The notes under the pieces: model-generated | What the model was told of the DNA's origin: nothing | The model's database searches: none | The model's input: only the letters and a program-made list of their open reading frames with translations | Translations under genes and position numbers: made by a program | Origin: Candidatus Wolfebacteria bacterium RIFCSPLOWO2_01_FULL_47_17b | GTDB taxonomy: Bacteria > Patescibacteriota > Minisyncoccia > UBA6257 > JAGOQP01 | Direction of reading: 5' to 3' | Assembly (NCBI GenBank): GCA_001793865.1 | Contig: MGIS01000024.1 | Span: forward strand, 21,525-85,524 | DNA length: 64,000 bases | Shown: positions 5,659 to 55,732 of the stretch, piece after piece | How positions within the stretch are numbered: the first letter of the stretch is position 1 | How the letters are laid out: every line of letters starts with the position of its first letter

Positions 5659-7690
5659 GATGGGGACACTGTAGCTTGTATAGTATTCCCGCTTCATCTT
5701 CATACACCCTCTCTGTTTGTGACAGGAAATTTTTTTGTATAAATGGCAGGTATTCTTGCTTAAATGGTTCATCCCAATACAGATATGTCGCTCCATTGGA
5801 GCAGAGGACGGTGGGATCGCCTGTTTGCAGAAATGAGCGTATGTTCTGGCGGCGCGCTGATCCGGTGTCCGCGCGGCCTTGTGTCCAGAGCCACCCCTCG
5901 AATCCTAAATATATAGGACGTCCTGTAAGCATGGGGATGAAATTGTTTGCTCCCGATGCGGATACGATAACGGCCGTGCTCGGTGTGTTGTTCCGTATAT
6001 ACTCAGCCGCTCCAAACTGCGTTTGTGAATAGTAGCCAAAATGCGATTTGTTTATGCGAGGACTTGTCCCAAGACTAATTCGTGCGAATACGTCCGCGGT
6101 TCCGGACGCGAGCGCTCCGAGTATGAAAATTATCGCAAGTGAAATAGGCGTGATTTTATACGGTGTACGATATACGATATTCGGCATACGGCCAATAAAT
6201 TTTTCTATAAGAAAAACAAAAACAAGCGTCGCGGCGAACCACCAGTAGAACAAAAGTTTGTTGTTATCGAATTCCCATGGCTGGAGCTTTACGAGATTTC
6301 CAACGGCAAAAATAATACTTCCGGCAATCCACGTTGCGAAAAGTGCGCTATGTTTTTTTATTTTTTTTATAAAAAAGAATGAAAGCAGCCATGCCCCAAA
6401 CAATACGCCGAAGTTTTTAAACCAAAACCACAGCGCATTCGCGTCGGTGCCCGAGGTATTGGGGTCGCACGCAAACCAGTTTGTGTTGTGTGCGCATGTC
6501 ATCCAGCCGAACCATAACGTGAGAGGTGAGACAGATGAAAAAATGGAATTTGAGAGGAGAAAATAAAGTTGCGGAGCGGCGATGAGGATGCCTATAAAGA
6601 TGGGGAGGAGTGCTTGTATACCGTATGCCGTATATTGTATATCGCGTACGCGGAACAAAAACACCACTAGCGCGAAAATTCCCATTGCAACGACCGTATG
6701 CAAGTGCGCTAAAGGAATGAATCCGACAAGCATGAACCAAAGCCATACCTTGTCTGTCTTCCAATATGCAAAAACTCCTGCAAGGAACAGGAACGCGAGC
6801 GCGGCGGCCGGCATAAACGATCGCTGGTGAGAAAAGAATGAAATAGCGGGCGTTATCCAGACAATATTCGCATCGTATTCCGCGCCGGACGGCTTTCCTC
6901 CTGTGCGGATATCCATGTGCGTGTATTCGAGTTGAGTGGTGAGTAGTGAGTAGTGAGTGGTGGGTTGTGAAAAATGCACGATGAATAGACCCAGGCCACC
7001 GCCAAACAAAACAATGGCGACAAATGATATTTGTAGAACAGGTTTCTTGACGGTGAGCTTTACGAGGTTCCACAATCCCGCTACGATGCCTGCGCCGTAT
7101 ATAAAGAGGGGCAGATGCCAAGCCAAGGCAAATGAACTCCCAAGCTTTAAAATCAACGCGCTGAGGAAGTTGATAAAAAATGTGTAGGTGAGCGGCGTGC
7201 CGCCGGCGATCGGGTGATTGAGCGCGAATGGATCCGATTCGGCCAACACTCGTATCATGTCCATGTGGTACGCGCCGTCTCCCCAGCCCTTGAGTATGCC
7301 GTAGGGAAATCCGTCCACCCAAATCATAGATTGGTACGCGAGAAGCAGGACAACGGCGGCTATTAATAGGATAGAAATACTTGTCGCTATCATTGCGAGC
7401 GACCAGCGGGAGCGCGGCAATCTCAAATAGTCAAGTGGATTGCTTCGCGTTGCTCGCAATGACAATAAAAACACTATCAGTGAAATTCCCAGAGTCGCCC
7501 ATGCCGCGAGCGTCAAATTTTTTGTGACCAGCGCACATACAAGCACAACAAACCCCTGTAAAGTTGTTCCAAGTACGAGCGAGAAAATCAAGCGCGAGAA
7601 AATACCGAATCGTTTTTCTTTATCCAAAAATGAAAGCGCAACCGCGCCTGATACTACTGAGAAAATACAAAACAACACCCCGTATATCAT
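5639..7690 (-). CDS. large polytopic membrane protein, possibly GT-C-fold glycosyltransferase (PMT/ArnT-like)
   Basis: 683 aa with >12 predicted TM helices; family assignment uncertain. Confidence 0.35.
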   Translation of the reverse strand: MIYGVLFCIFSVVSGAVALSFLDKEKRFGIFSRLIFSLVLGTTLQGFVVLVCALVTKNLTLAAWATLGISLIVFLLSLRATRSNPLDYLRLPRSRWSLAMIATSISILLIAAVVLLLAYQSMIWVDGFPYGILKGWGDGAYHMDMIRVLAESDPFALNHPIAGGTPLTYTFFINFLSALILKLGSSFALAWHLPLFIYGAGIVAGLWNLVKLTVKKPVLQISFVAIVLFGGGLGLFIVHFSQPTTHYSLLTTQLEYTHMDIRTGGKPSGAEYDANIVWITPAISFFSHQRSFMPAAALAFLFLAGVFAYWKTDKVWLWFMLVGFIPLAHLHTVVAMGIFALVVFLFRVRDIQYTAYGIQALLPIFIGILIAAPQLYFLLSNSIFSSVSPLTLWFGWMTCAHNTNWFACDPNTSGTDANALWFWFKNFGVLFGAWLLSFFFIKKIKKHSALFATWIAGSIIFAVGNLVKLQPWEFDNNKLLFYWWFAATLVFVFLIEKFIGRMPNIVYRTPYKITPISLAIIFILGALASGTADVFARISLGTSPRINKSHFGYYSQTQFGAAEYIRNNTPSTAVIVSASGANNFIPMLTGRPIYLGFEGWLWTQGRADTGSARRQNIRSFLQTGDPTVLCSNGATYLYWDEPFKQEYLPFIQKNFLSQTERVYEDEAGILYKLQCPHLIGMDE

Positions 7691-9942: not shown

Positions 9943-9998
9943 GATACGTTTATTTTATCACATATTTGGTCTGTCTTTCTTATTTGTTTGCTATACAC

Positions 9999-10100
9999 AA
10001 TTTCGAATTCTGAATTTCTAATTTCGATTCAATTTTGAATAACTGAAGTTTCGAAATTAATGCATTAGAAATTGATTCGAAATTCGGAATTGGAAATTAT
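9999..10100. repeat. AT-rich GAATTTCGAAT-type palindromic intergenic repeat, copy A (diverged)
   Basis: Shares 'gaatttc/gaaattc' motif architecture with copies at 25.9, 26.6/27.0, 41.6 and 45.1 kb. Confidence 0.6.
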
Positions 10101-10194
10101 AAATTATATGAATTATCCACACATCTTCGATTTGCGCGTAAATAATGTGTTATACTGTTTGAAAGGCCCTAAAAGCAATCACTAATTATTTATT

Positions 10195-14320: not shown

Positions 14321-14342
14321 TTCTGTAACCTTTCAAATCCCC

Positions 14343-15106
14343 ACGAGGCTCAGCCTCGTAGAGAAAGTATGAGAAAGTTAGCTTTTGTAAATGGTGGTAT
14401 ATATCACATCTATAACCGCGGAGTTGAAAAACTCCCCGTTTTTCATGATAGTCATGATTGTTTCAGGTTTTTGTATGGCCTTTATGAATTTAATGACAAA
14501 AATCCTGCCGAAAATATTTACTTTAAAGAACCTTCTTTAAAGTCCTACGAGGCTGAGCCTCGTAGGGAGCTTATCCTTAAGGATCGCGAACAAGTTGTCC
14601 ATATATACGCGTATTGCCTTATAGATAATCACTTCCATCTTATGGCCAGGCAAATAGAAGAAGGGGGAATTGTAAAATTTATGCATAAATTAGGGACGGG
14701 GTATACTGGGTTTTCCAATAAAAAATATGAAAGGTCAGGGCATCTTTTTCAAGGAAGATTTAAAGCGGTTTCCATAGAGAAGGAATCTCAATTATTGTAT
14801 CTTCCATATTATATCCATGCGAATACACTTGATATGTATATGCCCGGATGGAGAGAGGATGGTGTTGCTAACCTCAATAAGGCAATGCAAATTCTTGAAA
14901 ACTATGAGTATAGCAGTTATTCGGAGTATGCATGCGAACAAGGGAATTATCGGAATCCTATTTTAGAAAAAGATTTTTTATCAGGAGTTTTAGGATCCCC
15001 AGAACAATATAAAAAAGATATGATGAAGTGGCTTAAGGAAAAAAATAGATTCGAAAAATTAGGCGGAGTAACGATAGAGTCATAGTTCTACGAGGCTGAG
15101 CCTCGT
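14343..15106. mobile_element. IS200-like unit / RAYT with REP-like palindromes ACGAGGCT(C/G)AGCCTCGT at 14343-14359, 14545-14565 (internal) and 15090-15106
   Basis: Three copies of the same perfect 17-nt palindrome bracketing and within the HuH gene. Confidence 0.55.
14369..15085 (+). CDS. IS200/IS605-like (RAYT-like) HuH Y1 transposase family protein
   Basis: HuH motif 'DNHFHLM', family resemblance to COG1943; flanked by REP-like palindromes. Confidence 0.6.
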   Translation: MRKLAFVNGGIYHIYNRGVEKLPVFHDSHDCFRFLYGLYEFNDKNPAENIYFKEPSLKSYEAEPRRELILKDREQVVHIYAYCLIDNHFHLMARQIEEGGIVKFMHKLGTGYTGFSNKKYERSGHLFQGRFKAVSIEKESQLLYLPYYIHANTLDMYMPGWREDGVANLNKAMQILENYEYSSYSEYACEQGNYRNPILEKDFLSGVLGSPEQYKKDMMKWLKEKNRFEKLGGVTIES

Positions 15107-16929: not shown

Positions 16930-17719
16930 CAAACGACTCGGTCAGCATTTTTTACAGAATGGAGCTAAGCTACAAAAGATTGCAGACGCTCTTGAGATAC
17001 AAAAAGGGGATGTGATAATCGAGATTGGCCCCGGTAGAGGCGAACTTACTGAAAAACTTCTTGCCGCGGGCGCACGTGTGATTGCTATTGAAAAGGATGT
17101 ATTGTTGTGGTCAAGGCCGGGTCTCGACCACCTCGAGATGGTGTACGGCGATGTGCGAGAAAAGCTTTCGGTTGTTGTGAAATCTTTAGAAAAGAAACCC
17201 TACTTTCTTGCAGGAAATATCCCTTACTATCTGACGGGGTATTTGTTGCGAATGATAGGAGATATTGAGCACAAGCCGGTGCGGACAGTTTTTACGATTC
17301 AAAAGGAAGTTGCTGAGCGAATATGTAAAACCGAGGAGGTTGGCATGAATATATTAGCGGCTTCCATTTTGTGGTGGGCTGACGCGGCATACATTACCAC
17401 AATTCCGCGAAAAATGTTCAATCCTCCGCCGAAGATTGATTCCGCCGTAATCTTACTGAAAACAAAGCCAGCTTTCATAAAGGGTGGAACGAGGCAGCTC
17501 CGTGACCACGCTGATTATATGAAATTCGTGAAAGTTTTATTCGCGCATCCACGCAAAACAGCGCTATCGAATCTCCTCGCATTGTATAAAAAGAAGGCCG
17601 TGTTGGTCACCTTTACTGCATTGGATATTAGTGCGAATATTCGTCCCGAAAGACTCTCATTTGAGAAAATTTTAGAATTATATAAAACATTGCCCTCACT
17701 TAAGGACGATCGTCCTTAA
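16922..17719 (+). CDS. rsmA: 16S rRNA (adenine1518/1519-N6)-dimethyltransferase
   Basis: 'LGQHFLQN' and SAM-binding 'IEIGPGRGELT' KsgA motifs. Confidence 0.85.
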   Translation: MTNKRLGQHFLQNGAKLQKIADALEIQKGDVIIEIGPGRGELTEKLLAAGARVIAIEKDVLLWSRPGLDHLEMVYGDVREKLSVVVKSLEKKPYFLAGNIPYYLTGYLLRMIGDIEHKPVRTVFTIQKEVAERICKTEEVGMNILAASILWWADAAYITTIPRKMFNPPPKIDSAVILLKTKPAFIKGGTRQLRDHADYMKFVKVLFAHPRKTALSNLLALYKKKAVLVTFTALDISANIRPERLSFEKILELYKTLPSLKDDRP

Positions 17720-17725
17720 GTGAGG
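17694..17725. repeat. perfect 32-nt palindrome CCTCACTTAAGGACGATCGTCCTTAAGTGAGG overlapping rsmA 3' end
   Basis: Exact palindrome between convergent genes; related copies at 18383-18424 and 19650-19691. Confidence 0.7.
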
Positions 17726-17727
17726 AA

Positions 17728-18300
17728 CTAAATTCCAAAGTGATATTTAAGTTTATCTTCTCCTTCAAAATGATCCACATACGCAATAAGTATGTGATCT
17801 CGAATTGCGTAAAACGACGCGATGAAATCTATTTCGTCTTCGCACGAGTACGGAATAATAGCCACGCTCCTTTGGAGGAAATAAAAACCCATTCGATAAA
17901 GATGCCTTCGTAGAGCATTCCGCGCGGTTTTGTATTTTTCAGGAACGTCGAATGAAACAATTCGCCATTTTTTGTCCCATCGTCCCGCCGTCTTCAGCTC
18001 TATGTGTTCAATATCAAATTGCAAAACTTTTTCTTTTCCGGTTTTCAGTATTTTTATCTCTATGTTGCCATCCGCGAGTTCTTTGTAATCAACCATCTCT
18101 CGTTTCTGGAGGACGCGCAGATCCCGCATGAATTTATCTTTTTCAAAACACCTTTTTCGATAATAGATTTTTGCCAGTTCCGAGAGGATACGCGCGCCGC
18201 CAGCTGGATTGGTAAGTGAGACAACGGCAATTCCCGTGCCGATTGCAAGGTATTTCAATATAAGATGCGAGCGAGAGTTTCTATATATATTTTTTGCCAT
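17728..18300 (-). CDS. hypothetical protein with PaaX-C-like 'RWDKKWRIVSFDVPE' motif, possible regulator
   Basis: Weak motif resemblance only. Confidence 0.3.
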   Translation of the reverse strand: MAKNIYRNSRSHLILKYLAIGTGIAVVSLTNPAGGARILSELAKIYYRKRCFEKDKFMRDLRVLQKREMVDYKELADGNIEIKILKTGKEKVLQFDIEHIELKTAGRWDKKWRIVSFDVPEKYKTARNALRRHLYRMGFYFLQRSVAIIPYSCEDEIDFIASFYAIRDHILIAYVDHFEGEDKLKYHFGI

Positions 18301-18382: not shown

Positions 18383-18424
18383 CTGCCCCCACTTAAGAAC
18401 GATCGTTCATAAGTGAGGGCAGGG
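18383..18424. repeat. imperfect palindrome with ACGATCGT core (family copy 2)
   Basis: 'CTGCCCCCACTTAAGAACGATCGTTCATAAGTGAGGGCAGGG'. Confidence 0.6.
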
Positions 18425-18461: not shown

Positions 18462-18800
18462 CTAGAAAGGAAATAGGCCGCAACGTATGACTCCGTCCGC
18501 AAGCTCATGACAGGTAAAAAATAATTCTATGACGGTTTCGTATAGAAAGTAGATAAGCAGACATCCATATGCGGCAAGCGTTCCTATTCCCGTCCATTTT
18601 AAGAAGTTATTTCCATTTTTTCTGGATTTTGATATGAGGATTATGGGCACAGAAATGAAAGCGATTAAGAATAGAAGCGACAGATTTGCCCCGACTGATC
18701 CGAGTCCGAGAATTCCTGAAAGGCGAAACAAACCCAATACAGCAGCAAAAATGGCAATGCCGGTTATAACTCCGCTGATCTTTTGATATGCGTTCTTCAT
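18462..18800 (-). CDS. small integral membrane protein, hypothetical
   Basis: 112 aa, 3-4 TM helices. Confidence 0.4.
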   Translation of the reverse strand: MKNAYQKISGVITGIAIFAAVLGLFRLSGILGLGSVGANLSLLFLIAFISVPIILISKSRKNGNNFLKWTGIGTLAAYGCLLIYFLYETVIELFFTCHELADGVIRCGLFPF

Positions 18801-18836
18801 TTTTAAATTTGGTTATAATGTAGTATCAGCCGCCAT

Positions 18837-19601
18837 TTAGCGGTAGATACAATAGGGATTTGGGGAGATGGCGCAGGGATCGTTTTTCTCTTTTGCCGTA
18901 ATACATGATTCGTTTTTGTTTGTCGTATACACATATCTTTGCGAGCCCGTGTATTCGGCGGGTTTTGGCACCGGAAAAGTGTCCAATTTTTTTTCTAGCT
19001 CCATCAGGTTATTCGCGTATACTCCGAATTTTGTAAAATACAGTACCTGAAGAGCCTCTATTTTTTGTATATCCGCTTTTGCGCGTGCGGTGCTTGCGGT
19101 TGATTTGCAATATACACCCGGAATACTTTCCCAGATTGAAGCGATAATAATCACGTAGCTGACAACGTTTATGATCGTCATAAGCACGAGGGCTTGATTT
19201 TGCGTGAAATTATATTTTTCTTTGATCTTTTTTGTGAAGAATGCGAGTTCGAAAAATACGGTGAATATAAAGAATATTGGGAAGAGAATGTATATAGATT
19301 GCTTGTCGGGTCGGGCGATAATAGAAGTCGCAAAAAATCCGAGGATGGATGTTACGAAATTCCCAAGAATGATAATGAATAGAATGTGTTTTACCGCAAG
19401 CCATTTTTTGTATATGAACTTTGAAGCGATAATGAGCGTGATTGCTTCGGATATAACCACCACAGCAAAGAGAACGAACACATTTCCGAATGCTTCTATG
19501 ATAGTTGGAGACATGCCAACGATCATATCTGCATATGCAAAGGATGTGGACAGCAGGATTCCGGCCGCAATAAGAGTTGGTAGAAGCGGGGCTTTTTTCA
19601 T
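18837..19601 (-). CDS. polytopic membrane protein with C-terminal pilin-like Cys-containing segment, hypothetical
   Basis: Multiple TMs; C-terminal 'ARAKADIQKIEALQVLYFTKFGVYA' resembles type IV pilin post-helix region. Confidence 0.35.
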   Translation of the reverse strand: MKKAPLLPTLIAAGILLSTSFAYADMIVGMSPTIIEAFGNVFVLFAVVVISEAITLIIASKFIYKKWLAVKHILFIIILGNFVTSILGFFATSIIARPDKQSIYILFPIFFIFTVFFELAFFTKKIKEKYNFTQNQALVLMTIINVVSYVIIIASIWESIPGVYCKSTASTARAKADIQKIEALQVLYFTKFGVYANNLMELEKKLDTFPVPKPAEYTGSQRYVYTTNKNESCITAKEKNDPCAISPNPYCIYR

Positions 19602-19649: not shown

Positions 19650-19691
19650 CCCTGCCTTCACTTATGAACGATCGTCCATAAGCGAGGGCAG
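19650..19691. repeat. imperfect palindrome with ACGATCGT core (family copy 3, inverted relative to copy 2)
   Basis: 'CCCTGCCTTCACTTATGAACGATCGTCCATAAGCGAGGGCAGG'. Confidence 0.6.
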
Positions 19692-19779
19692 GTAGAGGGG
19701 GCGGTTGGTGAGGGGGATTTTATGCACATTTTTCGTTTGTATAAAGACCTCCACTAGTAGTATACTTATATTGTATGAA

Positions 19780-24885: not shown

Positions 24886-25923
24886 ATGATTCAGATTTCT
24901 CAACAACAACTTGAACGACGATGGGATGAGGCGCCAGACGAGATTCGGGACGGCATATTTTCGGATGAAAATAATGATGAGTTGGACAGGATAGGAGTCA
25001 CATATACTTTGAATCGTCAGCAGGAAAAAGATCTGGCATATCTGTGCCTGGTTACGTTCTTGGGATTCATCACCACGAAAGATGTATACAACCAGTTGCT
25101 GGAATTTTTCGGAGGAAATGCAAAGAGTGCGTACGATGTGTATGTGCTGTTGGATGTGAAGCTGTTCGGGCCGGTAAAGGGGCAAATAGAGGCGTTTCGG
25201 AAGACGCACTGGATTCCGGATGAGCAGGCCGATGTTCAACTTTCCCAGACCAAGGTTGAACCTCCACGCATGGAACAGAGGGTGGATTTGAAGAAGAGAC
25301 CGGAGAAAGATGCGGTCAATTTAAAAACAGAAGAGATTAAAAAGGTGGAGTCGGAGCCTGGACCGGTGGTGGTGTCACAAGTTAGAAGTGAGAAGCTAGA
25401 AGTGAGAAGTGAACAAAAAGAGCAAGTCCCCGCTGCTGTTCTTCCAACCTCCAACTTCCAACCCCTAACTTCTCAACCGAAATTGTTTTCGCCACACGAT
25501 TTTCACTTGAGAGGTGAGAAGTGGGCTGTGAGTAGTGAGAAAACTCAGTCTTCACAATCCGTAACTCAAAACCCACAACCCACTACTCAAAACCTAGACG
25601 AAGGGCCCATCATTCTTCACAAAAAGGAGGAATCTATTCCGATTGCGGAAGCGAATAGGTATAAAGAATATAAAAATATATCGGCGGGAGGATTTTTGGG
25701 GTCGTTTGGAAGCATATTCAACAGGAAGCGGGAACAGCAGAATCAGGCGCCGAGGGCGAGCGTGGAGATACCGGAGGCGTATACCGAAAACCGTATACCG
25801 TATACCGAATCAGGGAAGGTAGGGGAGAAAGTTCCGGTGAAGGTGAAGAATTTCGGAGATGAGCGAAGCAATGTGCAGTACAGTGATTATAGGACATATC
25901 TAAAACAAAGAGACCAGAGTTAA
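24886..25923 (+). CDS. hypothetical protein with internal short tandem repeats
   Basis: Repeats 'agaagtgagaag' x2, 'cgtataccg' x3, plus in-frame palindromic element 25234-25261. Confidence 0.4.
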   Translation: MIQISQQQLERRWDEAPDEIRDGIFSDENNDELDRIGVTYTLNRQQEKDLAYLCLVTFLGFITTKDVYNQLLEFFGGNAKSAYDVYVLLDVKLFGPVKGQIEAFRKTHWIPDEQADVQLSQTKVEPPRMEQRVDLKKRPEKDAVNLKTEEIKKVESEPGPVVVSQVRSEKLEVRSEQKEQVPAAVLPTSNFQPLTSQPKLFSPHDFHLRGEKWAVSSEKTQSSQSVTQNPQPTTQNLDEGPIILHKKEESIPIAEANRYKEYKNISAGGFLGSFGSIFNRKREQQNQAPRASVEIPEAYTENRIPYTESGKVGEKVPVKVKNFGDERSNVQYSDYRTYLKQRDQS

Positions 25924-26030
25924 TTTTTAATTATGATTTTCGAATTTCGAATCAATTTTAAATGACTGAATTTCTAAAATCAATACATTCGAGTTTGACT
26001 CGAAATTCAAAATTAGAAATTCGGGATTAT
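25924..26030. repeat. AT-rich GAATTTCGAAT-type palindromic intergenic repeat, copy B (solo)
   Basis: ~90% identical to copies D and E. Confidence 0.7.
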
Positions 26031-26039
26031 ACCTAAAAC

Positions 26040-26558
26040 ATGCAATTTTCAGTACCACAATTCATTGATGTTGAAAGCAAGATTGTCGGGCCGCTGACCA
26101 TCAAGCAATTTGTGCTGGTGGCGGTGCCGGCATTGTTGACATTTGTGCTCTTTTTCGTACTGCACATTGCCTTCTGGATTCCGATCGCGGCAATCTTGGT
26201 TGGCGTTGGTGTATCGTTTGCTTTCATAAAAGTAGACTCCCGTCCTTTGTATATGATTGCGCTCTATGCCCTCAAATTCTTTTGGCAGCCGAAACTGTAT
26301 TTATGGAAGCCGGCGGTTATAACCGAGAAAGTTATTATTCCCGAGATACAAAAGAAACGATTCGAGCTTAAGACACTTATACCCGATTTTTCGAAGGTCA
26401 ATAAGCTATGGCAGGACATGACCACGACTAAAAACCCCATTCCGAAGCGCGAAAAAATACTTCCCAAAGCGATGCTGCAAGAAGTGCAAGAACAGTACCA
26501 GGTGTTTAGAAAATTGAGCGGCGAACGGGAGATAGCGAAGAGAGTGGACTTTAGATGA
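26040..26558 (+). CDS. PrgI/TcpE/VirB3-like small conjugation membrane protein
   Basis: Two adjacent TM helices after 'IVGPLTIKQFVLVAV' segment, precedes VirB4. Confidence 0.45.
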   Translation: MQFSVPQFIDVESKIVGPLTIKQFVLVAVPALLTFVLFFVLHIAFWIPIAAILVGVGVSFAFIKVDSRPLYMIALYALKFFWQPKLYLWKPAVITEKVIIPEIQKKRFELKTLIPDFSKVNKLWQDMTTTKNPIPKREKILPKAMLQEVQEQYQVFRKLSGEREIAKRVDFR

Positions 26559-27016
26559 AAATTTTGAATTTCGAGTTCTGAATTTCGAATCAATTTTAAA
26601 TTATTGAATTATGAAGAACAGGCTGTCAGATACAACATATAACCTTGAAGAGCGAACCGCCGCATTTGGTGAAAAGATTATTAAACTCTGCAGAAGCATC
26701 CCGCAAGATGTTATCACGAAACCAATCATTAATCAGCTCATCCGTTCCGGGACGAGTATAGGTGCAAATTATATGGAAGCGAATGCCGCTAGCTCAAGGA
26801 AAGATTTCAAGAACAAGATTTTTATCTGTAAGAAAGAATCTCAAGAAACGCAGCATTGGCTTAGGATGATGGCACAATGCGTGCCGGGAAAGAAGGAGGA
26901 AATTAGAAATTTATGGAAGGAAGTGCATGAGTTGATATTAATATTTGGAAAAATTGTTTCAACATTAAGAAATTAGAATTTGAATCGAAATTCAAAATCA
27001 AGAATTCGAAATTCCC
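26557..27016. mobile_element. loaded copy of AT-rich palindromic repeat carrying a four-helix-bundle gene between its arms
   Basis: Left arm 26560-26610 and right arm 26977-27016 match left and right halves of solo copies B/D/E. Confidence 0.6.
26611..26976 (+). CDS. four-helix-bundle protein (23S rRNA IVS-protein / Avd-like family)
   Basis: 'QLIRSGTSIGANYMEANAASSRKDFKNKIFICKKESQETQHWL' matches TIGR02436-type consensus. Confidence 0.7.
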   Translation: MKNRLSDTTYNLEERTAAFGEKIIKLCRSIPQDVITKPIINQLIRSGTSIGANYMEANAASSRKDFKNKIFICKKESQETQHWLRMMAQCVPGKKEEIRNLWKEVHELILIFGKIVSTLRN

Positions 27017-35698: not shown

Positions 35699-37321
35699 AT
35701 GAGAAAGTATGTCTTTGTGGTGGGAGGGGTTATGTCCGGCGTAGGCAAGGGCGTGGCTTCGTCTTCCATTGCACGCATCCTCAAAGACGGCGGATACCGC
35801 GTAACAGCGGTAAAAATCGATCCCTATGTGAACGTAGACGCCGGGACGATGAATCCGACCGAACATGGGGAGGTTTTTGTGCTTGACGATGGTACCGAAT
35901 GTGATCAGGACATGGGCAACTATGAACGATTCTTGCACACCAATCTGTCCGGTTATAACTATATGACTACGGGCAGTGTGTACTTATCCGTTATCCAAAA
36001 GGAGCGAAATCTTGAGTATCATGGCAAATGTGTGGAAGTGGTTCCGCACGTTCCGCTTGCTGTTCTGGATACCATCAATGGCGCCTTGAAGCATACGAAA
36101 TCCGAGATCGTGGTTGTTGAAATTGGCGGCACGATCGGCGAGTACCAAAATCTCATCTTTCTTGAAGCTGTGCGTATGCTCAAACAGAAGCATCCCGACG
36201 ATGTTGCTCTGGTTCTTGTCAGCTATCTCCCGCTTTTGAATAAAGACAACGAACTCAAAACAAAGCCGACGCAATACGCGGTTCGCACGCTGAACTCCGC
36301 CGGTTTGCAGCCGGATATCATACTTGCCCGTTCCGCTCAGTCGATTGACGATAAGCGCAAAGAAAAGATCGCGTTCAACTGCAATATACCGAAACATTCT
36401 GTGGTTGCGGCGCCCGATGTTAAAAATATATATGAAATTCCGGTCAACTTGCGGAAAGGGAAGATAGATATGCTTCTTCTGAAGAAACTTGGTTTGCGTA
36501 AACGAGAAAACGCGTCGGCACAGTGGCGGAAGTTCGCATTGTCTTTGGACGGCGTCCAGAAAACGGTGCGCATTGGGATAGTGGGAAAATATTTTTCGTC
36601 CGGATCGTTTGTCCTTGCCGATTCCTACCGCTCGGTCATCGAGGCGTTGCGCCATGCGGCTCATCAGGAGAAGATTAAATTGGAACTTGATTGGATTGAT
36701 TCGGAACAGGTACAGAAAAAACCCTCTTTAATCGGGCAGTACGATGGCATTCTGGTCCCTGGCGGATTCGGAGCGCGCGGTATTGAGGGGAAGATCAAAG
36801 CGATTGAATACGCCCGTACGCATAAAATCCCCTATTTCGGGCTGTGCTATGGTATGCAGCTTGCGGTGGTGGAATTTACCCGTAATGTGGTGGGCCTTAA
36901 AAAAGCCCATACCACCGAGGCGGATCCCAAGACGCCGTATCCGGTCATCGCGGTGCTTCCTGAACAAAAAGAATATTTGGCTTTAAAAAAATATGGCGCA
37001 ACTATGCGCCTAGGAGGATATCCTGCCGTGTTGCAGAAGAATACGATCGCTCGTGAAGCGTACGGAAAACCGAATATTCGTGAACGCCATCGGCATCGTT
37101 ATGAAGTGAACCCCGATTATCTGAAGGTGTTAGCGGACGCGGGCTTGGTGATATCCGGCATTTCTCCATCGCAGGAACTTGCGGAAATCATCGAACTGCC
37201 GCGGACGGTTCATCCGTTTTTCGTCGGCACGCAGTTTCATCCGGAGCTTACGAGTCGTCCCCTTGAGCCGCATCCGCTCTTCTGTGCCTTTATGAAAGCC
37301 GCAAAAAGAGAGAGTTTATAG
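35699..37321 (+). CDS. pyrG: CTP synthase
   Basis: N-terminal synthetase domain, GATase 'GLCYGMQLAVVEF'. Confidence 0.9.
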   Translation: MRKYVFVVGGVMSGVGKGVASSSIARILKDGGYRVTAVKIDPYVNVDAGTMNPTEHGEVFVLDDGTECDQDMGNYERFLHTNLSGYNYMTTGSVYLSVIQKERNLEYHGKCVEVVPHVPLAVLDTINGALKHTKSEIVVVEIGGTIGEYQNLIFLEAVRMLKQKHPDDVALVLVSYLPLLNKDNELKTKPTQYAVRTLNSAGLQPDIILARSAQSIDDKRKEKIAFNCNIPKHSVVAAPDVKNIYEIPVNLRKGKIDMLLLKKLGLRKRENASAQWRKFALSLDGVQKTVRIGIVGKYFSSGSFVLADSYRSVIEALRHAAHQEKIKLELDWIDSEQVQKKPSLIGQYDGILVPGGFGARGIEGKIKAIEYARTHKIPYFGLCYGMQLAVVEFTRNVVGLKKAHTTEADPKTPYPVIAVLPEQKEYLALKKYGATMRLGGYPAVLQKNTIAREAYGKPNIRERHRHRYEVNPDYLKVLADAGLVISGISPSQELAEIIELPRTVHPFFVGTQFHPELTSRPLEPHPLFCAFMKAAKRESL

Positions 37322-37329
37322 GAGTGGGT

Positions 37330-37413
37330 GTAGCAGCTTGTATGGTCTAAAGTCTATGGGTAAGAGCATGCGGACCCGTAACTATCCCCACGGACCATAC
37401 TAGCGTCCATACC
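37330..37413. repeat. solo palindromic element with termini GTAGCAGCTTGTATGGT ... ACCATACTAGCGTCCATACC
   Basis: Termini match those flanking the four-helix-bundle gene at 40797-41259. Confidence 0.6.
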
Positions 37414-37485
37414 CATGCCTATATCAAAATCAACAGTGGGGAGTGGTGTATAAGTTCTAGAATTGATGTATTATATATTTATTAT

Positions 37486-39978: not shown

Positions 39979-40785
39979 ATGACTATTTTACTGTATGGGC
40001 CTGATACGTATTCCAGACAATGCAAGCTTGTCCAGTTTCGTGAAGGAGTCGTGAAGCGCAATCCTGATGTGGTGCAGGGCTCGTTTGATTTGAGTGAAGA
40101 TGGCACGCTGTATACGCTACACGAGTTTGCATCGGTGCGGGGGCTCTTTTCGCAAGGAAAGCGCATTGCGGTTGTGCGCGGCGCTCTTGGTTTTTTTGGC
40201 AATGAAGCTTTTGTCCGAATCGTATCCCGCGCGGCGCATGATCCAGACGTGCTTTTGCTTTTGCAGGAAGACCGGGACAGAAAATTAGACCGAAAGACGG
40301 AATCGTTCTGCAAAAAGAATGATATACAGGTGCAATATTTTGCAAAACCGACCGTTGCAACAGTGCGTACACGGGTGCAGGAGCACGCTGTATCAATCGG
40401 TGTTACGATCGATTCTCGGGCGCTTGATTTTCTGATTGAAGCGCGTGGGCAGGATATATACGCGTTAGTATCGGACATTGATAAATGGTCCGCCGTCAGC
40501 ACGAAAATCGATGTACCGTTTCTTTCAAAGACGGGCGAGTATGCTGCGGGAATAGGCGTATTCGATTTTTCTCAATCGGTGTTGTACCGAAAACCGCTTG
40601 CGGAGCGGCTCTCGCTGTTTGAGCGCGTTTCTTCACAAGGGATTGATCTATACGCGGCGTTCAACATTATCGCGAAAATGACCGCTTCCAAGGATCTTAT
40701 TGATTTGCTTGCCGCCGCGGATCTGAAAATAAAAAAAGGCCTTTTGGATATACAGCAAGCGATGCTTGCTGTGGTTATAGATTAG
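39979..40785 (+). CDS. holA: DNA polymerase III delta subunit-like
   Basis: Size/N-terminal pattern 'LLYGPDTYSRQ'; weak. Confidence 0.4.
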   Translation: MTILLYGPDTYSRQCKLVQFREGVVKRNPDVVQGSFDLSEDGTLYTLHEFASVRGLFSQGKRIAVVRGALGFFGNEAFVRIVSRAAHDPDVLLLLQEDRDRKLDRKTESFCKKNDIQVQYFAKPTVATVRTRVQEHAVSIGVTIDSRALDFLIEARGQDIYALVSDIDKWSAVSTKIDVPFLSKTGEYAAGIGVFDFSQSVLYRKPLAERLSLFERVSSQGIDLYAAFNIIAKMTASKDLIDLLAAADLKIKKGLLDIQQAMLAVVID

Positions 40786-41218
40786 GGGTTTTGGCGTAGA
40801 AGCTTGTATGGTTGAGGGGCTTTGTTTGATGTTTGTCTTTAAACGAATTCCACGCAGTGGCAAGGTTGAATAGTTGTCTCGATGTAATGTCGTAGACGGT
40901 GATGAGTTCAGTGCAGAGCGAAATTTCAATCCTGTAGATATCCTTGATTTGTTCAAGTCCCACGATTGTTTCGTTGCTTTCGGCCATTGCGTCATCAAGA
41001 TATTTTTGAAACCCGCGTTTTTGATGACGTTTTGCATAACCTTCTGCGATAAGACGAGGCACAGCTTTGCATGATCGTGATAGCTGATCTTTTAAATCAT
41101 ACCTTTCGTTAAGAGGTAGTTTTGGAATAATTTTAGTCATCAAAATAACACAGGCGTTGTAGCTGTTTTTATATACTTCTAAGTCCCGAAAACTTCTTAT
41201 GGGTTTTTTTATTTCCAT
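40775..41218 (-). CDS. four-helix-bundle protein (23S rRNA IVS-protein family)
   Basis: 'FRDLEVYKNSYNACVIL...QLSRSCKAVPRLIAEGYAKRHQKRGFQKYLDDA' classic TIGR02436-type pattern. Confidence 0.8.
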   Translation of the reverse strand: MEIKKPIRSFRDLEVYKNSYNACVILMTKIIPKLPLNERYDLKDQLSRSCKAVPRLIAEGYAKRHQKRGFQKYLDDAMAESNETIVGLEQIKDIYRIEISLCTELITVYDITSRQLFNLATAWNSFKDKHQTKPLNHTSFYAKTPNL

Positions 41219-41259
41219 ACGACAACCTTTTGACGCTATACCATACTAGCGTCTATACC
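40797..41259. mobile_element. loaded copy of the 37.3-kb palindromic element carrying a four-helix-bundle gene
   Basis: Left terminus GTAGAAGCTTGTATGGT (40797-40813), right ACCATACTAGCGTCTATACC (41240-41259). Confidence 0.6.
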
Positions 41260-41531
41260 TAAGCCTTTGTAAAAGTCTTTGTATATAACCTGCTGGCCCG
41301 TGATTTAATGCGACTCGCTTTATTGCGGTGAATGAAGTTGGACTTGGATGTCTTGTCCGCGGTCTTGTACAGCTTGGTAAGCGCGGCGGCTGCTTCGTCT
41401 TTTTTCTGCGCGGCGGCAAGTTTCTTGAATTCTTTAGCGGCGCTTTTGAGGGCGGTTTTCCGCTCCAGATTGCGCTCCCGCCGGCGGATATTCTGCCGGT
41501 TCGCTTTTATGGCTGATTTCGTGTTTGGCAT
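41259..41531 (-). CDS. rpsT: 30S ribosomal protein S20
   Basis: 'MPNTKSAIKANRQNIRRRERN' typical S20. Confidence 0.85.
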   Translation of the reverse strand: MPNTKSAIKANRQNIRRRERNLERKTALKSAAKEFKKLAAAQKKDEAAAALTKLYKTADKTSKSNFIHRNKASRIKSRASRLYTKTFTKA

Positions 41532-41599: not shown

Positions 41600-41720
41600 T
41601 AATATATTTAATTTTTAATTTTGACTTTCGAATTTCGAATCAATTTTTAATGATTGAATTTTCAAAATTAATACATTCGAGCTTGATTCGAAATTCAAAA
41701 TTAGAAATTCGAAATTATTA
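41600..41720. repeat. AT-rich GAATTTCGAAT-type palindromic intergenic repeat, copy D
   Basis: Near-identical to copy E including upstream 'tatatttaatttttaattttga'. Confidence 0.7.
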
Positions 41721-43564: not shown

Positions 43565-43662
43565 TAGGTTAAAGGGTGTGGCAACCCGTGTCGGCGTGGG
43601 AATGGTTATACGTCAGACAAAATCCCTAGACGATACTGGTTGCGATACCTACAACTACAACT

Positions 43663-45015: not shown

Positions 45016-45049
45016 TGTGCAGTGTGATATAGTTATGTATTATAGGAAT

Positions 45050-45165
45050 ATATTTAATTTTTAATTTTGATTTTCGAATTTCGATTCAATTTTAAATGAC
45101 TGAATTTCTAAAACTAATACATTCGAATTTGACTCGAAATTCAAAATTAGAAATTGGAAATTTTT
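45050..45165. repeat. AT-rich GAATTTCGAAT-type palindromic intergenic repeat, copy E
   Basis: Sequence near-identical to copies B and D. Confidence 0.7.
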
Positions 45166-45171
45166 AAACCC

Positions 45172-48556: not shown

Positions 48557-48928
48557 ATGTTGCAAAATCTTGTCATCTACCAAAAGACGTATGATCTGCT
48601 GCTCTGGCTGTATCCGGTTGTAAATAAATTTCCCAAAAGCCAGCGGTTCGTGCTCGGACAGCATATTGAAAACAAAGCGCTTGATCTGCTGCAGCTTTTG
48701 ATCCGCGCGCAAGCGGCAATGGACAAGAAAACATATTTGCGGGGCATAAGCATTGCATTGGACGAACTGCGCACACTCGTGCGTTTGGCAAAAGATCTCA
48801 AGTTTATGCAATTGAAACAATATGAACAGGCGGCGGATAGGCTGAATGAGATTGCGAAACTACTCTGCGGACTTATGAAAAGGTTTATTCCGGAGTATAC
48901 TGAGAGCGCTTATCAAAAGCAGGGGTAA
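48557..48928 (+). CDS. avd: DGR accessory variability determinant (Avd), four-helix-bundle protein
   Basis: 123 aa helical, Avd/four-helix-bundle pattern, between target and TR/RT. Confidence 0.75.
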   Translation: MLQNLVIYQKTYDLLLWLYPVVNKFPKSQRFVLGQHIENKALDLLQLLIRAQAAMDKKTYLRGISIALDELRTLVRLAKDLKFMQLKQYEQAADRLNEIAKLLCGLMKRFIPEYTESAYQKQG

Positions 48929-49060: not shown

Positions 49061-49211
49061 TCATTACTTTTTGGCCCGAATGAAGCGTGTACGCACACTT
49101 CATCTGAGCCGGACGACTACTGCCTTATTCCTTCTCCAAAAGAGTAAATACACATCCCATTCTCCGCGCTGTTGCATATGCTCCGGCGCGGAGGTGGAGG
49201 GATGTTTTATT

Positions 49212-50210
49212 ATGTTTGATCAACTCACTTCATTTCAAAATCTGCACCAAGCGTATCGGGATGCGAGAAAAGCAAAAAGATATCGCCCCGCTATCCTGCG
49301 ATTTGGATGCATGCTTGAAAAGGAACTTCCAATACTGCGGGATGCATTGCGCAACGGGACGTATGTACACGGCACCTACAGGACATTTATTGTTTCCGAT
49401 TCCAAAAAACGAATCATTCAAGCAGCTCCATTTCGCGATCGAGTGGTGCACCACGCGGTGTGCAATGTGATAGAGCCATTGTTCGAGCGTACCTTTATAC
49501 ACGACTCATACGCGTGCCGAAAGGACAAGGGGACGCATGCGGCGGTCAAACGATTGCGTTCGTTCATGCAAAGTTGCGGGGGGGGGGGGTCCAGGGTCTT
49601 CTGCCTGAAATGCGACATATCCAAATACTTCGATTCCATAGATCACGGAATATTATTGGGGCTACTGAAGAAGGGGCTACGAAAAGAAACCAAGGTTGAA
49701 CCTTCGCAGACCAAGGTTCAACCTTGGTCACTTCTCAATCTCTGCGAGCAGATCATCCGAAGCGTTCCTTCGGGCGTACCCATAGGCAATCTCACGAGTC
49801 AATTATTCGCAAACATCTATCTCAATGAACTTGACCAGTATGTGAAACGCGTACTCAAAGAACGATACTATATCCGCTATATGGATGATTTTCTTATTTT
49901 GAGTACGGATGCAGAGCATTTGTACAAACAACGAGAGTGCATACGCGCATTTTTGCGGGATCGATTGAAGCTTGTTTTGCATCCAAAAAAATCATCCATA
50001 TTTCCAATCATGCCCAACGGCATAGATTTTCTAGGATATCGTGTGTTCACGCACCATGTGGAATTGCGGAGATCTACCGTACAAAGGTGGAAGAGAAAAT
50101 TCAAAAATCTTCCGGCGGATCTCAGATCGGACGCGATTCGTGATTGGAAAGGATACACGAAGCATGCGAAATCGTGGAAGACGGTTCAAGGATTGCGGAT
50201 TTTGAAGTAA
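49212..50210 (+). CDS. DGR reverse transcriptase
   Basis: 'IGNLTSQLFANIYLNELD' and 'YIRYMDDFLIL' (YxDD) motifs; upstream ORF-track start 49071 overlaps TR. Confidence 0.85.
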   Translation: MFDQLTSFQNLHQAYRDARKAKRYRPAILRFGCMLEKELPILRDALRNGTYVHGTYRTFIVSDSKKRIIQAAPFRDRVVHHAVCNVIEPLFERTFIHDSYACRKDKGTHAAVKRLRSFMQSCGGGGSRVFCLKCDISKYFDSIDHGILLGLLKKGLRKETKVEPSQTKVQPWSLLNLCEQIIRSVPSGVPIGNLTSQLFANIYLNELDQYVKRVLKERYYIRYMDDFLILSTDAEHLYKQRECIRAFLRDRLKLVLHPKKSSIFPIMPNGIDFLGYRVFTHHVELRRSTVQRWKRKFKNLPADLRSDAIRDWKGYTKHAKSWKTVQGLRILK

Positions 50211-53288: not shown

Positions 53289-53966
53289 TTATTCAAATGG
53301 GTATAGCGGGTCGTTATTCTTTGGTGCGGTTATTTTTTTGGCCGTATAGCCGGACAGCCGGGGATTTTTTTTGAATGTCAGTTTTTGTTTATCCCATACG
53401 GGGAACAGTGCGGGGCCGTGTGTGCGTCGAAAAAAATCGTAGTCTGAAGAGTGCTTTTTTGCTGTGAAAATATTTGCAATAACAAGTGGTGTGCCGCGGG
53501 ATGCCTGTATGGTTATATGTCCGTACACGCCGGGAATATGTACATACGATCCTTCCTCTGCGCGTACGAGTATGATTTCTTTTTTAGTAGCGTGCTGCAG
53601 GTAGAACAGACCTTGTCCGTGAAGTACCTGGTACAGTTCGGCTGGCCGAGTACTACCGATTCGTTTGTGTATGTGGCCTATGGTCCGTACGGCTTCCGGG
53701 CCGATGGTTCCATACTGCAGGACGGTTATATCGTATCGAATGCCCTGTTTTCTGAACAGTTGCGTATGCGAAGGGAATCGAACGTTACGGTAAATATAAT
53801 ACAATGGTTTGGGAATTGCAAGTGTCCGGGTGTGCGGCATAAAAAATTCTTCATTTCCAGCGTAGTGCCGTTTTTCCACTGGGTCGTGCTCCAGCTTGGA
53901 AGAAAATATAAGGCCGCGCTTCGTGAGTGTTATTGGAAGGCCTGAGATGTGTTGTAGGGAAATCAT
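53289..53966 (-). CDS. cupin-type glucose-6-phosphate isomerase-like protein
   Basis: 'TIGHIHKRIGSTRPAELYQVLHGQGLFYLQ' matches cPGI metal-binding pattern. Confidence 0.5.
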   Translation of the reverse strand: MISLQHISGLPITLTKRGLIFSSKLEHDPVEKRHYAGNEEFFMPHTRTLAIPKPLYYIYRNVRFPSHTQLFRKQGIRYDITVLQYGTIGPEAVRTIGHIHKRIGSTRPAELYQVLHGQGLFYLQHATKKEIILVRAEEGSYVHIPGVYGHITIQASRGTPLVIANIFTAKKHSSDYDFFRRTHGPALFPVWDKQKLTFKKNPRLSGYTAKKITAPKNNDPLYPFE

Positions 53967-53984
53967 GAGAGAATTATAAATTTT

Positions 53985-54060
53985 AAATTATAAATCAGTT
54001 TTTAATTACTAAATTATAAAATTCAGACCTTGATTTTAAATTTATAATTTATAATTGGAA
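53985..54060. repeat. AT-rich hairpin (ATAAATTTTAAATTATAAATCA / TGATTTTAAATTTATAATTTAT), distinct from GAATTTC family
   Basis: ~22-nt inverted arms between convergently ordered minus-strand genes. Confidence 0.5.
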
Positions 54061-54061
54061 A

Positions 54062-55732
54062 TTAACGTGATACCCGTTTTGTCTTCGCATACCATTCGGT
54101 GATGCGGACAAAGCGGGCGTCGGGCGTCGCGATGGTGTCTATGGGAGCGCCGATTGTATGCGCTTGCGTGAGATATATGTACTGCGGGGAAGCTATGAAG
54201 AGTGCGGGTGTTTGGGAGACGATCTCTTGTGCAAGAATCGCCAGCGTTTCATTCCTGGATTGCGATTGAGGATCGATGGATCGCAGCTGCAAAAGTAGTT
54301 CATCTATGGTGCCGCTTTCATAAAGCGAGAAGTTAAGTCCCGGGTAAAACCGTTCGTTTGAATGCCAGAACGATGTAAGATCCGGCATAGGGAGTAGAAT
54401 ATTCCCATATATGATCATTTCGTAGTTTCTAGTTTTCAGTACATCTTCGGAAAAGAGATTTGCGTCGGTTGTTTCAATCTTCGTTTTGATCCCGACGGTT
54501 TCCCATTGGTTCCGCACCGATTCGGCGATTTGCCGCACGATCGGAGAGTCGGGGATTTTTATGGTGAACATAAGTTGCGCGAGCGTTTCATCGTCGGTTA
54601 CCGTATTCCATGTGCGAGTTTCGTCGTCAAAGAACCACCCGTTGTCTTCAAGCAGGCGATGGGCTTCATCGGTATTTCCTTGGGCTGGTACGGGGTTTTG
54701 AAGCGCGGTATCTTGGTATGCCGGCAACGGTCCTTGTTGAACCACTGCGTGTCCCGCGAAAACATCTTGTATAAGTGCTTCGCGGTCCACAAAGAGCCAT
54801 AGTGCGCGTCGTACCGCGGGTGACGCCAGGGCGGAATGCGCATTCTGGTTCAGGAACACCGCGTAGTATCGGGACGTTGAAATATTGTTTTGTTGGGTGT
54901 TTATTTCGGCGTATTCGGCAATGCGAGGCGTAAAACTGCCGAATCCGTCTATCAGTCCCTTATTGAACGAACGCATGAGTAAATCTTCGTTTTCAAAGTA
55001 CAGCATTACGAATCGATCCAGGTGTGGCAGTGTGCCGATCGCGTGGTACCGTTCGTTTTTCTTCATAAATATGCTTGTAATAAAGCCGTCCGCGCGCTTT
55101 TCGAGCTCCTCGAATACGAATGGTCCGCTTCCGATAGGCTTGAGGTTAAATGCCGAAAGCCGAATATTCGCAGGAGAAAGATCGGCAAAGTATTTCTTCG
55201 GGATGGGGCGAAGATCGTGCAGGAGATTTTCGAAGAGCGCGTAGGTATTGACTGTTTCAAAGAGAACTTCCCGTTCGCTGACGCGCTCAACGCTTACGTT
55301 CTGCCAGTTGGAAAAATGCGGACTTGCCGCGTCTGTGTTTTGGATGATTTGTACGGTGAATACAATGTCGTCGCTTGTAACGGGGGTGTTGTCGTGCCAA
55401 ACGGCTTCCTCTTTCAAGCGCAGACTCCAGCTCCTGAACTCCTCATCGTGTTCAATAAGCTCGGCAAGATCGTAGACTGAGGCAAACAGGAGTGCTACCG
55501 CGTCCCGGTCCGCGCTGCCTTCCCGCGCAAGCACGGGATTGAGGTAGGCGACCTGTCCGACAACTCCTTCGGTGAACGTACCACCCTGTGCCGGTACCGA
55601 CACGGTGTAGGTGTTGATAAGCTGGATGATCAAAAGCACGCCCGTTAGGAGTACGAGCGCCGAACACACCAGAAAGATCGTGAACTCTTTGGGTGAGAAA
55701 GATTTGATAGCGGACAAAAACGTGTGAAGCAT
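54062..55732 (-). CDS. extracellular solute-binding protein, family-5 (peptide/nickel ABC SBP-like), membrane-anchored
   Basis: N-terminal TM anchor, size/pattern of SBP_bac_5; no adjacent ABC permease. Confidence 0.45.
   Translation of the reverse strand: MLHTFLSAIKSFSPKEFTIFLVCSALVLLTGVLLIIQLINTYTVSVPAQGGTFTEGVVGQVAYLNPVLAREGSADRDAVALLFASVYDLAELIEHDEEFRSWSLRLKEEAVWHDNTPVTSDDIVFTVQIIQNTDAASPHFSNWQNVSVERVSEREVLFETVNTYALFENLLHDLRPIPKKYFADLSPANIRLSAFNLKPIGSGPFVFEELEKRADGFITSIFMKKNERYHAIGTLPHLDRFVMLYFENEDLLMRSFNKGLIDGFGSFTPRIAEYAEINTQQNNISTSRYYAVFLNQNAHSALASPAVRRALWLFVDREALIQDVFAGHAVVQQGPLPAYQDTALQNPVPAQGNTDEAHRLLEDNGWFFDDETRTWNTVTDDETLAQLMFTIKIPDSPIVRQIAESVRNQWETVGIKTKIETTDANLFSEDVLKTRNYEMIIYGNILLPMPDLTSFWHSNERFYPGLNFSLYESGTIDELLLQLRSIDPQSQSRNETLAILAQEIVSQTPALFIASPQYIYLTQAHTIGAPIDTIATPDARFVRITEWYAKTKRVSR

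Follow-up and report, generated by a model that had tools for sequence, protein, structure and literature searches.

A PF05635 gene between inverted repeats at protein-coding gene ends in a Wolfebacteria contig: a probable intervening-sequence-type element outside rRNA genes

Introduction

Why does a gene for a small four-helix-bundle protein lie between two inverted terminal sequences that recur nearby as a hairpin holding no gene? The question is raised by a stretch of 64,000 nucleotides of Candidatus Wolfebacteria bacterium RIFCSPLOWO2_01_FULL_47_17b (contig MGIS01000024.1, positions 21,525 to 85,524; hereafter the window, in which all coordinates are given unless a locus number precedes them). 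A gene of the PF05635 family sits there within an element at 40787..41265 (the loaded copy), and the same termini enclose no open reading frame (ORF) at 37324..37416 (the solo copy); together, these two copies form what we call the GC-type family. An earlier note, made from the letters of the sequence alone, had drawn attention to both copies and likened them to intervening sequences (IVSs).

Most PF05635 family members are annotated merely as 'four helix bundle protein'. It was reportedly proposed in 1993 that the ORF of IVSs serves their mobility, a proposal said never to have been tested since. The function of the S23p/IVS protein and the origin of rRNA IVSs were still called unclear in a 2016 paper on Coxiella (PMC4990558). 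The analysis presented here leads us to regard the feature in the window as probably a copy, outside rRNA genes, of the 'intervening sequence with ORF' element type known from 23S rRNA.

Results

Two copies with shared termini

A motif scan of the window located the left terminus GTAGMAGCTTGTATGGT at 37330-37346 and 40796-40812, one base before the start given for the latter in the earlier note (40797), and its reverse complement, with three mismatches, at 41240-41256. These three matches compare with 0.13 expected, and three or more were never reached in 100 shuffles of the window, so that chance similarity was rejected. For the right terminus ACCATACTAGCGTCYATACC, the window has two sites and no others, 37394-37413 and 41240-41259 (0.00 expected). 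The left and right termini are imperfect inverted repeats of one another, and the arms of the solo and loaded copies are identical at 16/17 positions on the left and 19/20 on the right. On the plus strand, the solo copy reads GTAGCAGCTTGTATGGT (37330..37346) and ACCATACTAGCGTCCATACC (37394..37413), and the loaded copy reads GTAGAAGCTTGTATGGT (40796..40812) and ACCATACTAGCGTCTATACC (41240..41259). In the sense of the gene, GTAGAAGCTTGTATGGT is the downstream arm, translated as a disordered C-terminal tail, and the upstream arm, ACCATACTAGCGTCTATACC, precedes the ATG by 21 nt.

Both termini recur in two unrelated gene contexts. The solo copy (plus strand) starts 3 nt past the pyrG stop (37321) and precedes the start of an AI-2E transporter gene (37486), while the loaded copy (minus strand) occupies the gap between the stop of a putative holA gene (40785; a label of the earlier note, with no Pfam match) and that of rpsT. 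The right terminus of the loaded copy overlaps the rpsT stop codon (41259-41261) by one base, the last base of ACCATACTAGCGTCTATACC being the first plus-strand base of that codon, and the stem reaches the last rpsT codons. Since one copy follows the pyrG stop and the other lies between two gene stops, the termini are not part of conserved neighbouring genes; the alternative that they are simply the 3′ ends of holA and rpsT does not hold.

The solo copy is predicted to fold into a hairpin of −36.9 kcal/mol (z −2.46; inverted repeat I8), with matches to the arm profile described below at 37320-37349 (+) and 37393-37422 (−) and, as previously noted, no ORF inside. The termini of the loaded copy are base-paired when 40786-41270 is folded to minimum energy, the outermost pairs joining 41265-41240 with 40787-40812, and the arm profile matches at 40782-40813 (+) and 41236-41268 (−). 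The significance of the termini lies in the recurrence of both rather than in the strength of the stem. Intrinsic terminators were considered and rejected: neither copy receives a terminator-like call or has a U-tract, and the solo hairpin is followed by CATGCCTATATC. A search of the window and of seven related loci at the gathering threshold brought up no Rfam family, and the solo copy remained without a match at E <= 10.

The protein of the loaded copy

The gene between the arms (40775..41218, minus strand) encodes a protein of 147 amino acids with an isoelectric point of 9.3, which matches PF05635 (E 3.8e-15, 56.5 bits for a cut-off of 33.8) and TIGR02436 (49.3 bits for a cut-off of 24). 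The folded part corresponds to residues 1-129 (40832-41218), while residues 130-147 result from read-through of the arm, their codons extending 11 nt into the neighbouring gene. An AlphaFold (AF2) monomer model built from 31 homologues has a pLDDT of 87.6 and contains helices at residues 14-33, 39-62, 69-95 and 99-129, followed by the disordered tail (130-147) that translates the left arm. The best structural match of the model is the Xanthomonas protein XCC0516 (2gsc, TMt 0.87-0.89), followed by BT_0352 (2rld, 0.75-0.85) and the phage protein Avd (4dwl, 0.81); the comparison with Avd suggested in the earlier note thus revealed a common fold. The window holds exactly three four-helix-bundle genes, in agreement with the previous count: the gene studied here, 26611..26976 (+) and the avd gene of a diversity-generating retroelement (DGR; 48557..48928, +), the product of which is 20% identical to the protein of the loaded copy. 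Solved relatives of the PF05635 protein form pentameric rings.

Sequence comparisons indicate that the four-helix-bundle gene is under constraint: 45 columns are invariant across the 31 homologues, and the codon differences between two copies of the gene at a related locus (L031) comprise 30 synonymous and 15 non-synonymous changes. No promoter-like site was detected upstream of the window gene.

A widespread family with conserved arms

More than 3,600 relatives of the protein are present in the database at E <= 0.001, and the best 120 of them are full-length with 62-76% identity, save two truncated near-identical entries. For the genomic context, we sampled 80 loci encoding homologues at 56-71% identity, which span Patescibacteria, WOR-3, Planctomycetota, Omnitrophota, Bacteroidales, Chloroflexota, Nitrospirota, Desulfobacterota, Marinimicrobia and others. 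RNA duplex folding of the whole flanks proved too noisy, and inverted repeats were therefore sought by locally aligning the 146 nt before the start codon to the 220 nt that follow residue 118, taken as reverse complement, with 820 controls of the same geometry. The flanking inverted repeats reach at least the 95th percentile of controls in 62/82 homologous genes of 57-71% identity and at least the 99th in 34/82.

Anchored on a common core, the arms of the different elements yield the consensus GGTtaCGAnGCcCGTATCG, with the fuller form nngtnaanGgtTtacGGTtaCGAnGCcCGTATCGTnaatc, of which GGGTGTAGCAGCTTGTATGG in the window is a recognisable variant. Arm identity is 73% between the two arms of one element and 60% between different elements, the latter value indicating that the sequence itself is conserved and not merely the pairing. 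The arm profile matches 200 times in 1.05 Mb of homologue loci, and 0.62 Mb of control loci from the candidate phyla radiation (CPR) yielded no match. Paired arms have a bimodal spacing with nothing between, corresponding to 22 ORF-less hairpins (18-74 nt inside) and 37 loaded units (416-679 nt). The upstream neighbour of loaded units is co-directional in 50/54 cases, with a median distance of 13 nt from stop to arm, and the solo hairpins mostly begin 0-22 nt past a stop codon. The window unit belongs to a very widespread family with a conserved, 7-nt-periodic arm sequence. The gene and its inverted termini had previously been viewed as a discrete unit of IVS architecture with an ORF-less counterpart; this description stands and extends well beyond the window. 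Among 50,697 phage records, tblastn returned no match, and the plasmid matches of the window protein are all cyanobacterial (26-39% identity).

Heptamer arrays around distant relatives

The lag-7 identity of the relatives' arms averages 0.358, compared with 0.267 in controls (p 6e-26). Arms of the GC type consist of a conserved non-repetitive core, GCnCGTATSG, and periodic flanks. Of 15 further four-helix-bundle genes in the fetched loci, all more distantly related, 12 are also flanked by inverted heptamer arrays, the heptamer varying from lineage to lineage (TAGCTTG, GGCGCTA, AGCTGTC and others). The two Avd-like genes examined have no flanking inverted heptamer arrays. In cyanobacterial plasmids, eight of nine four-helix-bundle genes are preceded by (GCAGGGGA)n and followed by an inverted array. 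Three of these nine genes (L178, L187 and L190, from Nostoc/Tolypothrix) lie directly upstream of a tyrosine recombinase/integrase gene, and at a fourth plasmid locus (L186) an integrase gene is located just upstream on the opposite strand.

In Xanthomonas chromosomes, a gene of the XCC0516 type is found between accB and accC (L179, L183 and L185, at 1924-2373), with GGGAATC GGGAGTG GAGAATC GGGAATC upstream and, inverted, CCCATTC CCCATTC TCGACTC CCTATTC downstream. Here the architecture can be studied in a cultured, tractable organism and with a protein family that has been crystallised. Cyanobacterial short tandemly repeated repetitive (STRR) heptamers are further heptameric repeats. The Xanthomonas GGGAATC and Nostoc GGGGAYT heptamers have been catalogued as quadruplex-forming repeats, with 70-75 inverted heptamer pairs per genome near stop codons and no link to S23p ('S23' is absent from the text; Rehm et al., 2015, PMC4692102).

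Gain and loss in relatives

Two loaded copies at locus L031 are 88% identical over 504 nt, and their likeness ends at the arms; each follows the stop of one gene and precedes the start of another. At orthologous sites, a four-helix-bundle gene with eight AACTCGC repeats in L035 corresponds to 98 nt in L033, and a heptad hairpin in L020 to 12 nt in L050. The ~92% identical loci L058 and L080 carry different heptad hairpins in orthologous spacers. Judged by these sequence comparisons, the units are duplicated, gained and lost as arm-bounded blocks in relatives.

Long tandem heptamer arrays on one side only were also observed. L080, from a Nitrospiraceae genome, carries GACAGAG/GACAGAT repeats at 8700-8930, a heptamer as in the Coxiella IVS, and L035 carries 8 x AACTCGC at 7640-7700 after a truncated four-helix-bundle ORF. 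Both arrays are missing at the orthologous site of a related genome.

Other palindromic elements of the window

A third ORF-less hairpin, absent from the earlier note, lies at 43577..43652 (+) between the stop of a Mur-ligase gene (43564) and the start of a beta-CASP RNase gene (43663), with the variant termini GGTGTGGCAACCCGTGTCG ... CGATACTGGTTGCGATACC. It is the best arm-profile match in the window (16.5 bits) and belongs to the same superfamily as a different variant. Its predicted fold is −38.8 kcal/mol (z −4.55) on the plus strand and −23.5 (z −0.59) on the minus strand, an asymmetry that is exceptional within its family.

The window also contains an AT-rich family. Its loaded element (26560..27013, +; inverted repeat I2) consists of 56-nt inverted arms of GAATTTC-type heptads around the gene 26611..26976, which matches PF05635 at 3.2e-16, and thus has the same anatomy as the loaded copy of the GC type. 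ORF-less copies are found at 41601..41720 (no strand assigned; direct-repeat families D1-D3, inverted repeats I1, I3, I4 and I10) and at 9990-10109, 25913-26032, 45047-45166 and 53965-54063; the AT-rich hairpin folds have z values of −4.0 to −4.8. The lag-7 autocorrelation is 0.46-0.58 in the AT-rich family (0.47-0.53 in the arms of the loaded element) and 0.28-0.41 in the GC-type element of the window. The two hairpin families were formerly described as unrelated, a view we do not retain. Both comprise inverted arms around a PF05635 gene and ORF-less copies at gene ends, and this shared architecture suggests that they are probably two lineages of one superfamily. Between 25913 and 27013, an ORF-less AT-rich hairpin, a gene for a PrgI-like membrane protein (26040..26558) and the loaded AT-rich element abut without spacers, so that arms flank the PrgI-like gene too.

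Several palindromes of the window are of other kinds. An inverted repeat at 6168-6191/6621-6644 has the spacing of a loaded unit and no four-helix-bundle gene inside. A gene at 14369..15085 (+) matches the IS200-like Y1 transposase family PF01797 (6.6e-06), and a GTAG-type palindrome, CTACGAGGCTGAGCCTCGTAG, occurs beside or within it at 14338-14361, 14545-14568 and 15084-15106; the ensemble (14338-15106) resembles a unit of a repetitive extragenic palindromic sequence (REP) and its REP-associated tyrosine transposase (RAYT). A third kind of long palindrome, TGCCCTCACTTAAGGACGATCGTCCTTAAGTGAGGGCA, at 17691-17725, 18383-18422 and 19651-19692, brackets the gene 17728..18300 (−), which encodes a PaaX/Cas2-like domain (PF20803), and genes at 18462..19601. 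A short palindrome based on AAGGTTGAACCTT is present in four copies (12194, 25229, 49690 and 63095), one of them within the DGR reverse-transcriptase gene.

Discussion

An intervening-sequence-type element at gene ends

The assignment to the 23S rRNA 'intervening sequence with ORF' type is based on a shared anatomy. In Leptospira and Coxiella burnetii, such IVSs carry a PF05635/S23p ORF inside terminal inverted repeats that form a long stem, and in Coxiella tandem heptamers (GACAGAT) precede the S23p ORF (PMC4990558), as heptamers accompany the genes studied here. ORF-less hairpin versions of IVSs occur in the rRNA of other bacteria (PMC4990558; PMC11270868 for insertions in CPR rRNA). The main difference is the location, since both window copies lie between protein-coding genes in a window that contains only one tRNA gene and no rRNA gene; the seven homologous loci examined are likewise without rRNA. 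Moreover, the Coxiella ORF is regarded as decaying, and that of the window is, by contrast, strongly conserved.

The element is a unit of ~480 bp made of a PF05635 gene between terminal inverted repeats, with an ORF-less version at 37324-37416 and a variant at 43577-43652. Elements of this kind sit a few bases past the stop of a host gene, nearly always in the orientation of that gene, a position that points to expression by read-through transcription from the host gene. Sequence and predicted folding suggest that the arms pair as a stem of 20-35 bp, which would draw the host flanks together. Turnover through duplication, gain and loss of arm-bounded blocks is seen in the relatives and not at the site in the window. 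The protein may bind the arms, both in its own element and in the ORF-less copies, and act in their maintenance or spread, like a RAYT with its REPINs (hairpins formed by paired REPs); we propose this role because of its fold, the precedent of RNA binding by Avd and the RAYT/REPIN analogy. By analogy alone, the stem in the transcript could be a substrate of RNase III, as in rRNA intervening sequences.

Several results weigh against this interpretation. The stem of the loaded copy is imperfect (about 16/20 pairs, extendable to 26 with mismatches) and is not significant alone, and the 7-nt periodicity, visible in the arms of relatives, is barely evident in the GC-type copy of the window. The loop of the solo copy contains no remnant of the four-helix-bundle gene, so the solo copy did not arise from this loaded copy by simple deletion. 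Mismatches between arms (64 G.U-type transitions in the sense orientation, 66 antisense and 257 transversions) correspond to random expectation, the duplex energies of loaded units are equal on both strands, and the solos fold equally well on both. With neither a G.U bias nor a strand preference, selection on an RNA stem is not demonstrated, and the RNase III step remains an analogy; the symmetry of the arms looks like a constraint on sequence or DNA rather than on a wobble-tolerant RNA stem. In addition, we know of no nuclease or recombinase activity of a four-helix bundle, so that a role in mobility would need host enzymes.

Neither the L031 copies nor those of the window have a recognisable target-site duplication, although the periodic arms have blurred outer limits. 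For neither window copy did we find an empty site: all 20-23 contigs of a groundwater CPR/Patescibacteria population that carry the gene or rpsT contain the insert, in the same arrangement and with at least 99.7% identity, so that the comparison of empty with filled sites proposed in the earlier note met only filled ones in this population. A metagenome scan based on metG recovered relatives that are 47-67% identical, in which holA and rpsT are not detectable beside metG, and again no empty site. Only in L095 does pyrG remain next to the transporter gene. The spacer there measures roughly 25-50 nt instead of the 164 nt of the window, which is suggestive, but the sequences are too divergent for an alignment. 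Because the insert is fixed in the population and the relatives are too divergent, mobility at the window locus is not established. The idea that these genes travel with hairpin elements thus finds support in relatives, by the L031 copies and by presence and absence at orthologous sites, and not at the window site.

Alternative explanations

It is unlikely that the hairpins belong to the host, for instance as processing sites, REP-like repeats or stabilisers of transcript ends, and that their palindromes served as targets for PF05635 genes inserting preferentially into their loops. Such a history would agree with the position of rRNA intervening sequences at the tips of rRNA helices (PMC4990558) and with the ORF-less hairpins found right after stop codons near loaded units in many fetched loci, and the different hairpins of L058 and L080 indicate that hairpins turn over independently. 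However, paralogous loaded copies share their arms and lose all likeness outside them, arm pairs have only two inner sizes, and the arm sequence accompanies the gene across phyla, with 60% identity between unrelated taxa and no match in control loci, unlike a lineage-specific host repeat. We consider it unlikely, too, that nothing here is mobile and that an ordinary resident gene with a structured transcript is accompanied by an inverted repeat acting as a stem for processing, termination or autoregulation, the solo copy being left over after loss of the ORF. The fixation of the insert in the population, the lack of a visible target duplication and the purifying selection on a conserved gene would all suit a resident gene, but they have to be set against the presence of several copies per locus with different neighbours, the 57-71% identity of the gene across many phyla in unrelated gene contexts, and presence or absence at orthologous sites. 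Furthermore, the solo loop has no ORF remnant, intermediate sizes are missing, and the hairpins, without a U-tract, are not called as terminators.

Two other systems encoded in the window could be invoked. The protein might be an Avd paralogue serving the DGR (reverse transcriptase 49071..50210), or the element might spread through an RNA intermediate copied by that enzyme, as the DGR is only 7.3 kb away, the fold is that of Avd, and Avd is reported to bind RNA stem-loops (bioRxiv 10.1101/2023.10.23.563531). This is very improbable, since the DGR (~47.0-50.2 kb) has an Avd of its own that matches the Avd models PF22296 and NF033474, whereas the hairpin protein matches neither and shares little sequence with it; a reverse transcriptase was found within 10 kb in none of the 80 homologous loci, and Avd-type genes lack flanking inverted arrays. 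A connection with the DGR is not supported. It is hardly credible that the IS200-like Y1 transposase (14369..15085) mobilises the ORF-less hairpins as REP sequences. The transposase gene is bracketed by GTAG-type palindromes in the manner of a REP/RAYT unit and the window termini likewise start with GTAG, but the palindrome CTACGAGGCTGAGCCTCGTAG is otherwise unlike the hairpin arms, and GTAG is not conserved, other arms of the family reading TACG, ATAG or GTGG at that position.

Comparison with other repeat systems

The element also has traits in common with several dispersed repeats. As in REPIN/RAYT systems, a gene lies between two inverted copies of a repeat, and ORF-less hairpins made of the same repeat are scattered over short spacers near gene ends. 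The window protein is, in contrast, a four-helix bundle and not an HUH Y1 transposase, and the arms are 7-nt periodic. A further difference is the 57-71% identity of the gene across many phyla, which suggests horizontal spread, RAYTs being reportedly mostly vertically inherited. The heptameric arrays of Xanthomonas and Nostoc are tandem 7-nt units, often in convergent inverted pairs, between co-directional genes and within ~50 bp of stops (PMC4692102); the same arrays were found here to flank the four-helix-bundle genes of the XCC0516 type and of Nostoc plasmids, the window arms differing by their additional core, GCnCGTATSG. DGR avd genes encode small, basic proteins of the same fold and superfamily, whereas the window gene has no adjacent reverse transcriptase or template repeat, fails the Avd-specific models and has flanking inverted arrays. 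MITEs (miniature inverted-repeat transposable elements) comprise short non-coding copies with terminal inverted repeats and a longer ORF-bearing relative sharing their ends, and the solos 37324-37416 and 43577-43652 have the corresponding features (terminal inverted repeats, small size, no ORF, several copies). In the case presented here, the longer form encodes only a four-helix-bundle protein and no transposase, and no target-site duplication is seen.

Implications

A broader interpretation, which we put forward tentatively and with some doubt, is that PF05635 proteins and 7-nt-periodic inverted repeats constitute a two-part system resembling RAYT/REPIN, in which a non-enzymatic, probably pentameric nucleic-acid binder would recognise its own and dispersed heptad arrays and favour their persistence or spread. 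The rRNA IVSs, the Xanthomonas and cyanobacterial arrays, the orphan four-helix-bundle genes found in CPR bacteria and possibly also the origin of DGR Avd would then fall into one class of elements. In the full-text literature, which our search covered in part, we found no link of four-helix-bundle or S23p genes to intergenic palindromes or heptamer arrays beyond the Coxiella IVS, and a prior description may exist.

The finding is also relevant to the annotation of CPR genomes, several short spacers of the window being filled by hairpins of this kind. If the heptad-periodic palindrome at gene ends, with its ORF-less copies, is the usual habitat of the family, the location of XCC0516 within the accB-accC operon, together with the existing crystal structure, would make the question testable in cultured organisms. 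The rRNA cases would then become a special case of a general element, and the Xanthomonas and Nostoc heptamer arrays, treated until now as quadruplex-forming simple repeats, would gain a candidate protein partner.

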